20,000 nt of DNA from Vermamoeba vermiformis (lineage: Eukaryota): contig JBEWZL010000118.1 of the NCBI GenBank assembly GCA_045837725.1, positions 45,060 through 65,059 on the forward strand. Reading direction: 5' to 3'. A program made the translations under genes and the position numbers. The stretch's first letter is position 1, and each line of letters begins with the position of its first letter. Shown here in pieces: positions 15,706-20,000 of this stretch. The notes beneath the pieces were generated by a model that had not been told where the DNA came from, searched no databases, and worked only from the letters and a program-made list of their open reading frames with translations.

Positions 15706-17169
15706 CTAAATAAGAAAAACGAGTAACCAACCAAGCAAAGAAGCGCCAATCGCCACGCCATTGCTGGCCATGTTCGCGGTTGTTGGTGCATCAACCGTGA
15801 GAGTATTCGAAGTGTCTGTGGATGTTGGTGACGAGAATGGAGCAGACATGCTAGAACCAGAAACTGGCACGGGAGCGACGAATTGCGTGACACCACGATC
15901 CCACTGTGCCGCTAGTCGTTTCACGCCAAACATGTCAAAATTGAACGGAGTTCCTACGTTGAGACCAGGCGCGGTGTGTTCCTTCAAATGAAAGTCTACA
16001 GAGCTCGTAGTAGGATCAGCCAAGCCATCCCAGTTCACGAACGGATTGCCAGTACCAGCTTCACCGTGCGCTTCAGCAGCCACGGCGTCAGCGTTCAAGT
16101 CGCAGATGGGAGAACAACCGTCGATGCGATAGTTGTCGTAGAACCAGTTGTAGTCCGCATCGGCCCAGATAGACAAAGAGTTGACGACGTTGTGATACCA
16201 CATGTTGTTGTAGACTTTGTTGTTCGAGCCTTTTGCAATGTAGATGCCACCAGATGAAGTGTTGACGTTGGTAATCAAGTTGTTGTAGAATTGGAGACCG
16301 CTCATGGATCCTCCGTCGTCGGCAATATAAAGCGCAGGGCTCCAAGAGTTCGAGAAGATGTTGCCGTAGACACTCCAGTTGTACGCGTCGCCGTTGTTGA
16401 CACCAGCCAAGAACGCCGAGCCTTCAATTTTCCACCAGACGCAGTGACGAACGACCAAATTGGTGACCGTACCGAGGAACGAGATACCTTCGGTGTGCCA
16501 GTCTGCTGTGCTTTTGTTGTCCTTGAAGTACGAGAACTCTACGACCATGTTGTAGACGTCGGCAATGTGGAAGAAGACGCCAAACACGCTGTAGCCTGCG
16601 CAGTAACTGATGGTAATGTCGTGATTGCCGCCTTGGGTCAGTTTCATGGCAGCAGTCTGCGTCTGTCGATCTGCGTGTACGCTGGTGTGGCTCAACTTAA
16701 TGTGATGCACGTTAGCATTGAAGAAGATGAGAGCTTGTCCGACATTTCCGGTTGAATAGACGTCAAAACCATAGCCAGTGAACCACGCCCCAGGACCGCC
16801 GCCCACAGATCCGTTGACTTTGTAGTACGACGAGGCTACAGTGATTGTAGGAAAGCTTGCATTGCCAGTGCCATATTGATCGAGCCATCCAACATCAGTG
16901 CCGTGGTCGTTGGCAGTAGCTTTTTGAATAGTAATCCACTTGGAGCCGGAGACTGGATCGTTAAGTGTCAAACCGGGGTATTGACCGGAACCAACGTAGT
17001 AAATGTCTCCTCGAACCAAAGTAGCAGGAAGAGCGGTATATGCATTGGTCCAATCGTTTCCATTTCCGCTGCCACGAGCAGTTGCGAGGACGTAGTGCTT
17101 GGTTTGAGCAAAGCTAGTTGAGATGAGACTCGTCATGAAAACGAGCGCTAAAATGCTGGAGAGAGTCAT
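15706..17169 (-). CDS. Intronless 487-aa secreted, probably GPI-anchored right-handed beta-helix (pectin-lyase-like fold) protein
   Basis: Single ORF. Signal peptide MTLSSILALVFMTSLISTSFA; N-cap GSGNGNDWTNAY..LPATLVRGDIYYVGSGQY; Asn-rich parallel-beta repeats (VYGNIF, FYNNLI, NNKVYNNMWYHN); DFHL...DMFGVKR..WDRG C-cap; S/T/P-rich stalk; small-residue site followed by a hydrophobic tail ending at the stop. Confidence 0.8.
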   Translation of the reverse strand: MTLSSILALVFMTSLISTSFAQTKHYVLATARGSGNGNDWTNAYTALPATLVRGDIYYVGSGQYPGLTLNDPVSGSKWITIQKATANDHGTDVGWLDQYGTGNASFPTITVASSYYKVNGSVGGGPGAWFTGYGFDVYSTGNVGQALIFFNANVHHIKLSHTSVHADRQTQTAAMKLTQGGNHDITISYCAGYSVFGVFFHIADVYNMVVEFSYFKDNKSTADWHTEGISFLGTVTNLVVRHCVWWKIEGSAFLAGVNNGDAYNWSVYGNIFSNSWSPALYIADDGGSMSGLQFYNNLITNVNTSSGGIYIAKGSNNKVYNNMWYHNVVNSLSIWADADYNWFYDNYRIDGCSPICDLNADAVAAEAHGEAGTGNPFVNWDGLADPTTSSVDFHLKEHTAPGLNVGTPFNFDMFGVKRLAAQWDRGVTQFVAPVPVSGSSMSAPFSSPTSTDTSNTLTVDAPTTANMASNGVAIGASLLGWLLVFLI

Positions 17170-17890
17170 TGTTGTTAGTTCTTAGCTAATTGGAAATAAC
17201 CGAAAGATTGCTGTCCTTTTAACTCCATCGACAGAATCTTTGGTCCTGATCGGACCCAAGTTGTGTCCCCAGTAATCTTTTTTGCTGGAGAATTCAATTA
17301 ATTAGCATGCGCGTTGTTTATGATGCAGTGTAAGTCTTTTGTGGTGGCGCCGAAAAAATTTTTTTTGTGAGGATCCGCAAGACGCAACTTAATAAGTGCG
17401 CTCACTGGAACCGTGGAAAAATTGTTAATAATTTTCACAGTGGTGTCCTCGGGTTTAGCCGCGTAGAAAATCAATTACTTAGAATAGAATAAATTTTTTC
17501 GGCTGCCAAAATTGGCTGCCACCGGTATACCTCGAGGATTGTTGGATGGCTATTATGGCGCAACGGAAGTTTGCTTTCACAATTAAAATCGCGCTCCCGA
17601 AATATAGTAGCCTAGCATTGTCAGTTAAAATTCGTTAATTAATCCGGAGCGAAGTGGAGCTTACTAGCCACCTAATATTAGCATAGGCGTTAGAGCTGAG
17701 CGCTAGCATTCACGATCAAATGAAACAAACAAAAATAATATCAATCAAAGCGGAATAACACAAAGATATAAAAGGCACTTTTATTAACCGCTAATTTGAT
17801 CCGGATTCAGATTATTAAGAGCGTCGTTATCAGCGGCAAACCACGAATTGTATCGTCAATAGACGCGACAATAGAATTACGGAGCGGCAA

Positions 17891-18315
17891 ATGGTATGCG
17901 CAGATATTATGTAAATATTAATTAATTTAAATATTCCAGAGTTTTGATTTAATTCCGAACGAAACCGTGGTTGAAATTTTGAGCTATGGGCTTCAACCCT
18001 TTGTACCCTCAGAAGCTGTAAAGTAGGAGTATGCTAATTAAAAAAAAAAGGGGATTACTAACAACATCGTTTTTTAGATGGCTTACTATTTCAAAGCGGG
18101 TAAGCAGTCTGGTATGGCTATCGGTGGAATCGGCTTACTTATCTTTCTGGCCAAACGAAGAGATCTTCCGCAAGAAAGTTGCATTCTTACGAAACTTCCC
18201 GCTGCTTAGATATGTCGAAGTTATTGGGCCCTCGGAATACTGCAAGACAACCGAAGAGTCACTCAGCCTTATAACCCATTTAACGACGAGGGTTAGGGAT
18301 CCTCCTGTCACGTGA
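17891..18315 (+). pseudogene. Short or truncated F-box (LRR-type) gene abutting the putative mobile element
   Basis: ATG micro-exon 17891-17893, intron 17894-17939, exon 17940-18022, intron 18023-18077, exon from 18078. Translation MSFDLIPNETVVEILSYGLQPFVPSEAVKWLTISKRVSSLVWLSV...FLRNFPLLRYVEVI...HLTTRVRDPPVT* (107 aa). The stop lies inside the palindrome TGTCACGTGACA. Confidence 0.6.
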
Positions 18316-18675
18316 CACGATCCCGATCCGCGTTGCTAATTAACGCGTAAGTAAATCTTTTATTTATAATGATAATAGGTCCTAACTACAGTATTAGGGC
18401 CAAAGGACAGGTCTTTGCTTGCCACGGGCGAGCGAAGCGAGCCCGTGCAACAGCACCAAATCGCCGGTCCAGCAAATCAAGCTGCTGGACTGCTAAATCA
18501 ATTCGAACACGCAATTTTTAACGCGTCGCGAACAGAAGCACAACACAACAGATTTAGGTAAGTTATTTATTACAACAATGATATTATTACCTATATTCAA
18601 TGCTAGATCGTGTCCCGAGTGACACGAATCTAGATTTAAAATTCAAGACTTTCGGTTATTTAGCAAACCGAAGTC
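18296..18675. repeat. Cluster of short inverted repeats / hairpins
   Basis: Stems at 18296-18324 (includes 12-bp palindrome 18306-18317), 18329-18347, 18378-18401, 18401-18417, 18423-18447, 18467-18490, 18603-18633 and 18647-18675, each read directly from the sequence. Confidence 0.8.
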
Positions 18676-18779
18676 AAATTACGTTATAATAAATTACAAT
18701 AACTAACATATTAATATTTTAGGATCTCTTTGATTATTTTTGGTCCGTAATTCAATTTCGGGTCAGATTCGAAAAATTA

Positions 18780-20000
18780 ATGGCTGGTAAGTGTCGGAAT
18801 TTTTCATTCATCAATTTCGCACTAGTATTAACAGTTTATAACAGAATTTTCTTGCAATTATTGCGAGAAGAAGTTCAATAAAATCGGAAAGTTGAATTTC
18901 CACGTCAAAGACTGCCATCCAGAAGACGAGGAGAGCAAGAAGTGCCCGTTATGCAATAAAACATTCGGTTCTGTCTCGAACAAACTGCGTCACGAGCAAA
19001 CTGGCTGTCCAAAGGAGCGGAAGATCGTTTGGATTCCGCCCGAGGATGTCAATAAAGAGAAAATTAATAATCGCCACGTGAACCAACGCAATCAATTGAC
19101 AGACAACTCTCTCGAAATTATTCAAATGTTTAAGCAGTACTTGACAGCTGGCAGTACTTCAACCTTTATGCTCAGTCGTGGCAAACAGCAGCTCGAAAAG
19201 TCAAGTGTCGAGTCGTATGTCAGTCATTTTCGAGTGTATTTAGCATTTGTTGAGGTAAGGCAACTTATTTTGCCCGACTGTTAGCTAACTTAGCATGCAC
19301 AGAATGCAGAAACTGATCGCGATGTTATTGATTGCTTCCTTCGCGTTAAAACAATTAAAGACTATGTTCGGCACTTGACGGAATCAGAGTACTGTAAGAA
19401 GACGATACTTAACAGATTGCTTGCTTTGGAGCGATTCTGTGGATTTGTTGAAGAGAAGATTGATAATCTTGCAGCAAGCAATCTCACTTCTCGAAAACGC
19501 ACCAAGCCATTTGAAAAGACAGTTATAGAGACATTTGAGTGGCTCAGCGCCCAGATTAAAGTGTATCGTCCAATCGCAACAAAAGAAACCTTGGCACGTA
19601 ACAGCCGTGAGACTTACGAACAAGAGGGCCGCTGGATATCTCCTCAAAAGCTATTTTCAAAAGAACAAGAGCTTCGAGAGCATATTGACACCTTGATTAG
19701 TCAGTGCGAAACAAATCCTGATCGAAGGTACTTTGTTTTATATAGGTGCTGTGGTTCTAATTTGTAATACAGACCAACAATGGCAGACATCCAAGCTATC
19801 CAACGCTATTTGTTATTTGTGTTAGTGGTTCGCAGGCCACCAATGCGAGCCCAGAACTTCCAGCTTTTAATACTCGAGAAAGTTGAAAACCCAAAAGAAG
19901 CCAAGCACAATGCAGTTGTTTTTGAAGGGGAAGAAGTCATTTTGCAGTACAGTGAATACAAAACAAAGTCGTAAGTAATGTCAATTTGATAATGTAGATT
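18780..20000 (+). CDS. Tyrosine recombinase (integrase-like) with two N-terminal zinc fingers; intron-containing; truncated by the window edge
   Basis: Exons 18780-18786, 18845-19254, 19303-19727 and 19773-19970 join in frame. C2H2 finger CNYCEKKFNKIGKLNFHVKDCH; C2HC finger CPLCNKTFGSVSNKLRHEQTGC; core-binding (SAM-like) helices SSVESYVSHFRVYLAF and IKDYVRHL..YCKKTILNRLLALERFCGF; box-I-like Arg in PPMRAQNFQLL; Lys hairpin in QYSEYKT. The HxxR and Tyr motifs are not within the window. Confidence 0.75.

Follow-up and report, generated by a model that had tools for sequence, protein, structure and literature searches.

Eukaryotic tyrosine recombinases are, to our knowledge, found in only a few settings, namely Cryptons, DIRS-like retroelements, Starship captains, plasmids of the 2-micron type and viruses, and the domesticated descendants that we know of have lost catalysis. 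Cryptons (CryptonF, CryptonA, CryptonI and CryptonS) encode a recombinase and carry no reverse transcriptase, and CryptonF has an additional DNA-binding domain, as described in excerpts of Kojima and Jurka (2011, PMC3212892). Here we report a spliced gene near the right end of a 20,000-nucleotide (nt) stretch of DNA from Vermamoeba vermiformis (contig JBEWZL010000118.1, positions 45,060 to 65,059), which is called the window below and supplies all plain coordinates. The gene starts at 18780 on the forward (+) strand and encodes two zinc fingers in front of a protein that, going by the modelled structure of a collinear relative, very probably has the tyrosine-recombinase fold in the family to which it belongs. 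An earlier note, made from the window's letters, had taken it for the recombinase of a Crypton-like transposon or of a large cargo element. The fold it named is well accounted for by the results below, and whether the gene is mobile is weighed after them.

The gene was modelled by direct reading and scripted joining, and all of its exons and introns lie on the + strand. Exon 1 (18780-18786) consists of ATGGCTG, the start codon plus 4 nt, and is followed by intron 1 (18787-18844, 58 nt, GTAAGT..AACAG). Exon 2 (18845-19254) encodes both fingers, an RH motif and the first SAM-like helices; intron 2 (19255-19302, 48 nt, phase 0, GTAAGG..CTAAC..CAG), which has an in-frame stop inside, separates it from exon 3 (19303-19727), which carries the remainder of the SAM-like core-binding domain and a long helical linker. 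Beyond intron 3 (19728-19772, 45 nt, phase 2, GTACTT..ACAG), exon 4 (19773-19970) opens the catalytic domain with the first catalytic Arg and the beta-hairpin Lys. Introns 1-3, as read directly from the sequence, have CTAAC-type branch sites and acceptors ending in CAG; short introns of this GTAAGT..CTAAC/TACTAAC..AG kind are suggestive of fungal ones. Joining the four exons by their coordinates with a script resulted in 1040 nt, or 346 codons, with 0 stops. Exon 4 breaks off after the second base of a codon, at a GTAAGT donor (19971) 30 nt short of the window end, so that the gene continues past the window, and 19971-20000 are the first 30 nt of intron 4. The 346 codons are the first ones of an intact eukaryotic gene that probably has five coding exons, four of which lie in the window. 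The splice model of the earlier note, a 7-nt ATG exon joined to three fragments, is borne out by the 346 stop-free codons and by the same structure in a metagenomic relative (L003), and every readable detail of its sequence description, covering the exons, the fingers and PPMRAQN...YKT, proved correct. Upstream of the ATG, two GTAAGT..AG stretches at 18349-18380 and 18560-18722 resemble introns of a 5' untranslated region of the recombinase gene, candidates from sequence only; L003 starts at the corresponding ..TTTTAG/G acceptor about 60 nt 5' of its ATG. Two RNA runs with the same species label gave 0 reads over 17000-20000 and are no measure of expression.

Both fingers are encoded in exon 2, a C2H2 finger of the pattern C-x2-C-x12-H-x4-H at 18853-18918 and a C2HC finger of the pattern C-x2-C-x12-H-x4-C at 18943-19008. 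Their presence, also part of the earlier description, is confirmed by these patterns and by two Pfam finger families above their cut-offs in exon 2, zf-Di19 (28.1 bits, cut-off 27.5) and zf-C2H2_jaz (23.8 bits, cut-off 22.6). A conserved RH motif at 19072-19077 follows in the same exon, and the SAM-like core-binding domain extends from about 19108 in exon 2 to about 19460 in exon 3. The window's own exon pieces gave no integrase match in Pfam because intron 2 splits the SAM-like domain, and the domain was called from relatives: Phage_int_SAM_1 (PF02899) was above cut-off in six of them (P0012, P0050, P0015, P0022, P0018 and P0011), where the match crosses the exon 2/3 junction. In exon 4, the first catalytic Arg sits in RPPMRAQN (R at 19846-19848) and the beta-hairpin Lys in EYKT (EYKTK, K at 19960-19962), and both residues are invariant columns of the family alignment A4.

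The relatives were collected with exon 3 as the query. A first word-index search found nothing with it, and a full HMMER search of 1.84 billion representatives returned 36 proteins at an expect value (E) up to 0.001, of which P0021 was rejected as a spurious repeat protein. When six relatives were compared with the 20-kb window by tblastn, matches were confined to 18847-19971 at E 5e-17 to 2e-70, indicating that the family homology is far beyond chance, and the window's three exon pieces aligned collinearly with full-length relatives. Full-length members include P0018 (788 amino acids), P0022 (710 amino acids) and P0050 (567 amino acids), and P0040, P0041 and P0052 are 5'-incomplete. Their N-terminal part shows, in order, two fingers, the RH motif, PF02899 and a long helical linker, and their catalytic motifs follow in the order RP(T/P)MR(S/A)QN, KYKT, ..(S/G)TIRK(I/V)ME.. 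and ..MLHDP.TA..YY... The catalytic half is succeeded by a low-complexity stretch rich in Ser, Pro and Asn and then by a RanBP2-type zinc ribbon, which is conserved in the relatives though under its Pfam cut-off. P0052 has 75% identity to the window's exon 4 and extends to STIRK..MLHD..RYY, covering the whole catalytic half and the RanBP2 finger, and judged by its sequence it is the best proxy for the part of the gene beyond the window end.

Two side observations concern how family members are built. In the window's own clade (P0052 and L003:2078-2260), the RanBP2 ribbon is followed by about 55 conserved residues, ..HDI.SVLDR...G..IFK.NS.SKGITWVRAKHVP.., and in the predicted fold of the RanBP2-plus-tail piece of L003 (mean pLDDT, the predicted local distance difference test, 51) this tail forms three beta strands at a local pLDDT of about 70; by eye only, it looks chromo-like or Tudor-like. 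In P0044 and P0010, a single open reading frame (ORF) joins a catalytic C-terminal part (STMRK..MLHD..RYY), a poly-Asp stretch and a core-binding/linker segment like that of exon 3, with zinc fingers absent between the catalytic C-terminus and the exon-3-like segment. They may represent copies in another organism that are arranged in tandem, rearranged or built differently.

An AlphaFold2 model was built for P0022, which is collinear with the window exons, from a 38-row alignment. Its pLDDT is above 90 across about residues 20-500, and both fingers fold as a beta-hairpin plus helix with pLDDT likewise above 90. The best rows of a Foldseek search against the PDB were Cre, XerA, XerD, XerH, Tn1549 Int and Flp, with probabilities of 0.95-1.00 for most of them and 0.57-0.63 for Flp; the E values reached only 3e-3 and weaker because the angle between the two lobes differs. 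Re-alignment with VIA resulted in Z scores of 12.3-10 over 244-275 residues with both domains covered, and all 50 of the 50 entries listed were tyrosine recombinases, their repressor derivatives or type IB topoisomerases. Against BFVD, the best match of the model was a recombinase from NIOZ-UU159 (E 1e-6), and the next ones, at E 1e-5 to 3e-5, came from Harvfovirus, Hokovirus, Hyperionvirus, Heterosigma akashiwo virus, an Aureococcus virus and a Tetraselmis virus. Giant-virus recombinases thereby outrank phage integrases and a virophage protein (3e-3) among the BFVD matches, over 309-424 aligned columns and with an identity of only 13-18%. The ESM Atlas supplied leads only, unnamed clusters and one Phage_integrase cluster at 15%.

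The residues expected of an active site fall into place in the P0022 model, with R322 at a helix start, K361 at the end of a beta-hairpin strand, R437 at the start of helix 433-446, H464 before helix 466-473 and Y472/Y473 at the end of that helix. VIA paired model residue 471 with Cre residue 322, which, by alignment ranges only, puts Y473 of P0022 at Cre Y324, the Cre nucleophile (PMC13465315, excerpt). The first Arg motif is present in 16 sequences, window exon 4 included, and of the sequences that reach far enough, 11/11, P0052 among them, have the second Arg, the His and YY. The set R-K-R-H-Y is kept across 21-75% identity.

The gene structure, too, is conserved. Locus scans were performed with family alignments A3 and A6 (A2 and A4 being too diverse): the JGI metagenome scan with A6 found three genomic loci, L002, L003 and L004, the scan of the same metagenomes with A3 found no locus, and a scan of GTDB genome_contigs found no relative. 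L003, with 73% amino-acid identity to the window gene, begins with the micro-exon ATGGCCG directly before GTGAGT, the counterpart of the window's 7-nt ATG exon. The two genes agree exactly in their exon lengths (7/410/425/198 nt), and all three intron positions recur (introns of 50/47/45 nt in L003). L003 is also spliced at the point of the window's fourth donor, and the ORFs of the more distant relatives P0015, P0007 and P0053 end exactly there, at ..YKT... The proportions of nonsynonymous and synonymous differences (pN and pS) between the window gene and L003 were 0.157 and 0.77, so that synonymous sites are saturated, with no stops in either gene; the gene is under strong purifying selection. 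In L004 (about 45% identity), introns 2 and 3 have the same positions and phases as in the window. P0051, an intronless contig 78-84% identical to L004 and continuous across the L004 introns, is the spliced mRNA of a relative and shows splicing and expression there. Near-identical variants of the window gene are carried by two metagenomes (water and aquifer), with 8/12 exon differences synonymous. Three source-listing database searches yielded nothing but Logan and JGI proteins with no name or a generic one, to which cluster look-ups added ENA members and a few NCBI-sourced ones, likewise without a specific name. As a separate observation, the reading frame of L003 shifts at about 1565-1580, inside the catalytic domain, compared with P0052 and with L002, which is 99.6% identical to L003 and stays in frame; the shift is due either to faulty assembly at 3x coverage or to a genuine frameshift in the L003 copy.

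The 5' flank of the gene contains two palindromic sites, neither assigned to a strand. The first, at 18303-18322, is a palindrome with TCCTGTCAC and GTGACACGATC as its halves; the second, at 18603-18633, is a near-palindrome, CTAGATCGTGTC-CCGAGT-GACACGAATCTAG, with 12/13-nt arms and a 6-nt spacer. They have the core GTGACACGA in common and both fall within about 460-480 nt 5' of the ATG, at 150-480 nt upstream. The motif GTGACACGAWC, allowing up to 1 mismatch, has all 3 of its window matches in 18312-18629, where 0.57 were expected and 7/200 shuffles reached 3. The layout at 18603-18633 resembles a lox or FRT site, and inverted repeats of 11-13 bp around a 6-8-bp spacer are described in excerpts of Kojima and Jurka (PMC3212892). 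A contig of metagenome run X4 that covers 18518-19077 showed 0 differences in 18518-18664, 21 in the 174 nt of 18665-18838 and 3 in exon 2, and the sharply conserved block of this variant encloses the 18603-18633 palindrome. The variable stretch 18665-18838 corresponds to the 5' leader plus intron 1. The palindromes may act in the promoter, be bound by the fingers of the protein itself or be sites of recombination; they do not demonstrate the left end of an element.

The 18.7 kb upstream hold intron-bearing cellular genes, among them F-box, ferric reductase, alpha/beta hydrolase and GH125 genes and one, at 15706-17181, for a secreted beta-helix protein, and in L004 a CobW-family gene lies upstream of the recombinase gene. 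Between those two genes, L004:1231-1282 carries a 22-nt inverted repeat with an 8-nt spacer that is 77% complementary and unrelated in sequence to the window palindromes. Directly upstream of the window gene, two ORF pieces at 17931-18315 (+) around an intron-like stretch (GTAGGA..TACTAAC..TTTTAG) are maybe a small gene; an F-box reading of the first piece by eye (..FDLIPNETVVEILSY..) was dropped, with no Pfam match. Neither an Rfam family nor a tRNA was detected in the region.

As to whether the gene belongs to the host, we lean slightly towards a low-copy, vertically inherited host or domesticated recombinase in preference to a proliferating transposon. A 7-nt first exon, exon lengths and intron positions that were kept despite saturated synonymous sites are the pattern of orthologous genes. 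tblastn found one copy only within the 20-kb window, with no second copy or fragment, and all 20 clusters looked up (90% identity) contained 1-3 sequences on 1-3 contigs. Together with the cellular neighbours upstream, these properties make the locus gene-like and not transposon-like. The earlier note had set a domesticated single-copy gene against its transposon, and that picture was found in part, in the conserved exon structure, the clusters of one to three and the ordinary genes upstream. The same note's identification of a tyrosine recombinase holds, given that the relatives show the fold and a conserved downstream Tyr in the P0022 model, Foldseek, VIA and the motif counts; the structure search that it had proposed, run on that model, placed Cre, Xer types and Flp in the best PDB rows. 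By contrast, the profile comparison with Cre that it had also proposed points to no sequence-level kinship, hhalign of the family against Cre of phage P1 giving a probability of 0.9%. This last result belongs to a series of observations that weigh against a host-encoded, working recombinase. Pfam recognized no family in the catalytic half of the relatives, apart from one SATase_N row attributable to chance; when the PDB was searched by sequence, the catalytic profile gave nothing meaningful, the best row being a TFIIH p34 chain at E 0.079, and the whole-family profile returned zinc-finger proteins only. The His of the HxxR motif is replaced by Ser (10) or Gly (2) in 12/12 sequences and the third residue after the first Arg is Asn, not Glu or Asp; the second Arg, the His and the Tyr fall beyond the window end and are assigned to the window gene through its relatives. 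Both metagenomes cover 17000-17565 and 18518-20000 and nothing in 17606-18514 at a depth of about 3x, a gap that may reflect chance, strong divergence or a structural difference beside the gene. L002 and L003 are 99.6% identical from L002:2187 (= L003:540) onwards, 9 nt into intron 2, and upstream of this junction L002:1-2186 carries a DDE-type integrase of the Ty3/gypsy kind (rve plus Integrase_H2C2) and then about 475 nt ending in ..TGACA. A long terminal repeat retrotransposon has probably inserted in intron 2 in one population, in which case the gene can be disrupted in some individuals. (A single N stands at about 1939 of L002.) Finally, P0044 shows a rearranged or tandem arrangement, and this, the coverage gap and the integrase next to intron 2 in L002 would each fit a mobile or dispensable gene. 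With neither the HxxR His nor an acidic residue behind the first Arg, catalytic activity is not assured; with R-K-R-H-Y retained, the family is one without two auxiliary residues, and on balance we consider its protein putatively catalytically competent.

Some of these points could be accommodated if the gene were part of a Crypton-like DNA transposon that moves autonomously, or of a larger cargo element extending rightwards. The encoded recombinase would excise such an element as a circle and reintegrate it by site-specific recombination, with the fingers guiding recognition of its ends or target. We regard such an element as possible and as less probable than the host gene. Cryptons have no terminal inverted repeats and contain introns, as the earlier note stated, and this was counted in its favour, as were the lox-like palindromes 150-480 nt upstream, the fusion in P0044 of a catalytic C-terminal part with a segment like exon 3, which tandem or circular copies might produce, the possible structural variation at the uncovered 17606-18514 and the retrotransposon nested in L002. 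The full catalytic set, kept here over the whole identity range of the family, is kept by active elements and lost in domesticated Crypton derivatives (PMC3212892, in excerpt), another point for an active element that also weighs against a host gene. However, the absence of a second copy or fragment in 20 kb, the 20 clusters of 1-3 sequences and the conservation of the 7-nt first exon, exon lengths and introns at saturated synonymous divergence all speak against an element; a long low-complexity linker with a RanBP2 finger is in our judgement unusual in a transposase; and the family lacks the His found in the R-H-R-Y tetrad of Cryptons and matches neither DUF3504 nor GCR1_C. A catalytically dead, recombinase-derived factor binding DNA or chromatin, on the model of DUF3504 proteins, Ndc10 and Gcr1, would explain the loss of the HxxR His and the acidic residue, the added fingers, low-complexity linker and RanBP2 finger, as in a nuclear regulator, and the gene-like structure under strong purifying selection. 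We consider it improbable, because there is no obvious reason for a purely DNA-binding protein to conserve the catalytic set, in which the second Arg, the His and YY, nucleophile Tyr included, are found in 11/11 sequences and the first Arg and hairpin Lys are invariant columns, and the Tyr and second Arg are gone from the known domesticated derivatives (excerpts of PMC3212892). The least probable origin, and a very improbable one, is viral, with the gene encoding the integrase of a giant virus, polinton-like virus or virophage that had integrated. The earlier note had named a likeness to virus-type recombinases, and this stands insofar as giant-virus recombinases are the best viral structural matches (BFVD matches from NIOZ-UU159, Klosneuvirinae, Heterosigma, Aureococcus, Tetraselmis and Pyramimonas viruses at E 1e-6 to 1e-5, a virophage at 3e-3); it does not extend to sequence, where identity is 13-18% and two IMG/VR pattern scans found no relative. 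Four spliceosomal introns, the cellular genes in the upstream 18.7 kb and the CobW-family gene upstream in L004 likewise disagree with a viral origin.

For the preferred host recombinase, a mechanism can be proposed by analogy. The fingers and the core-binding domain would clamp a specific DNA site, whereupon both Arg, together with the His and the hairpin Lys, would activate the scissile phosphate and stabilise the intermediate. The Tyr (Y473 in P0022) would attack the scissile phosphate to form a 3'-phosphotyrosyl link, and strand exchange or resolution would come next, as in Cre and Xer. The protein would thus act as a site-specific recombinase or resolvase, and its RanBP2 finger and tail might make a nuclear, chromatin or RNA contact. 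In its most specific form, which we put forward as doubtful, the proposal is that a lineage of microbial eukaryotes has kept a single-copy, competent recombinase or resolvase that its fingers aim at chromosomal sites for programmed DNA rearrangement or resolution, with targets that are possibly palindromes like 18303-18322 and 18603-18633. If true, the host would encode a tyrosine recombinase that does a cellular job and belongs to no known transposon, plasmid or virus.

The family matters under more than one of these readings. It widens the list of eukaryotic tyrosine recombinases by a type with two fingers in front and a RanBP2 finger behind, whose catalytic half is too divergent for any Pfam model and yet retains the nucleophile and the Arg/Lys/Arg/His residues within an old, constrained gene structure. 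A mobile gene would represent a new Crypton-like group with zinc-finger targeting, and a host gene would represent a rare eukaryotic retention of an apparently active tyrosine recombinase. In either case, zinc-finger-guided recombinases are natural models for programmable site-specific recombination and are of practical interest.

Compared with Cre, XerA, XerD and XerH, the family has the same two-domain plan of a SAM-like core-binding domain and a catalytic domain (Z 10-12.3), with R, K, R, H and Y at the expected secondary-structure places. By contrast, its catalytic half has no detectable sequence similarity to these proteins, the HxxR His has become Ser or Gly and the acidic residue Asn, and it adds two N-terminal fingers, an RH hairpin, a helical linker of about 100 residues, a low-complexity tail and a RanBP2 finger. 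The window gene is also eukaryotic and spliced, unlike the Cre and Xer types of bacteria, archaea and phages. Type IB topoisomerases match the fold of the catalytic domain (Z 8-10.4, root-mean-square deviation 3.1-3.8 A over 155-171 residues) and gave the lowest deviations in the VIA list. The active set of the family, R-K-R-H-Y without the HxxR His, likewise resembles what we take to be the type IB topoisomerase pentad. Its N-terminal domain is Xer/Cre-like instead, and the fingers suggest site-specific action, unlike the general DNA relaxation by these topoisomerases. Giant-virus recombinases of protists and algae, the best viral structural matches, differ in that the window gene has introns and cellular neighbours, and the IMG/VR scans mentioned above used the patterns of A3 and A6.

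Among the eukaryotic systems, the literature search, which covered Creative Commons-licensed PMC articles and bioRxiv, listed no description of a recombinase that combines C2H2 fingers at its N-terminus with a RanBP2 finger at its C-terminus. DIRS, Ngaro, PAT and VIPER elements would be signalled by reverse transcriptase/RNase H, of which there is none in the 18.7 kb upstream, and in relatives the recombinase ORF fills contigs of 2.3-2.7 kb. Phage_integrase (PF00589), which also takes in DIRS, PAT and Ngaro recombinases (PMC13465315, excerpt), gave no match on 6 catalytic-domain sequences at E up to 10 and none on full-length relatives at E up to 0.01 or 1, where HMMER filters drop many matches above E 0.1. 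The relatives matched neither the Pfam family of Starship captains, DUF3435 (PF11917), nor DUF3504 (PF12012, CryptonA) or GCR1_C (CryptonF), which bears out the separation from DUF3504 and DUF3435 proteins drawn in the earlier note. The DUF3504 proteins ZMYM2-4, QRICH1 and KCTD1 and the proteins Ndc10 and Gcr1 resemble the family as conserved, intron-bearing host genes in which a recombinase fold is fused to DNA- or protein-binding modules. Unlike the domesticated Crypton derivatives, all examined members of the family have retained R, K, R, H and Y. Cryptons themselves are like it in having a eukaryotic recombinase gene; the His of their tetrad is missing from the family, and the excerpts of PMC3212892 used here describe them without mention of such fingers or of a RanBP2 finger. 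Taken together, this small family, which has no name in the searched sources, is probably a new family with a new architecture among eukaryotic tyrosine recombinases, judged by Pfam and by the literature covered.

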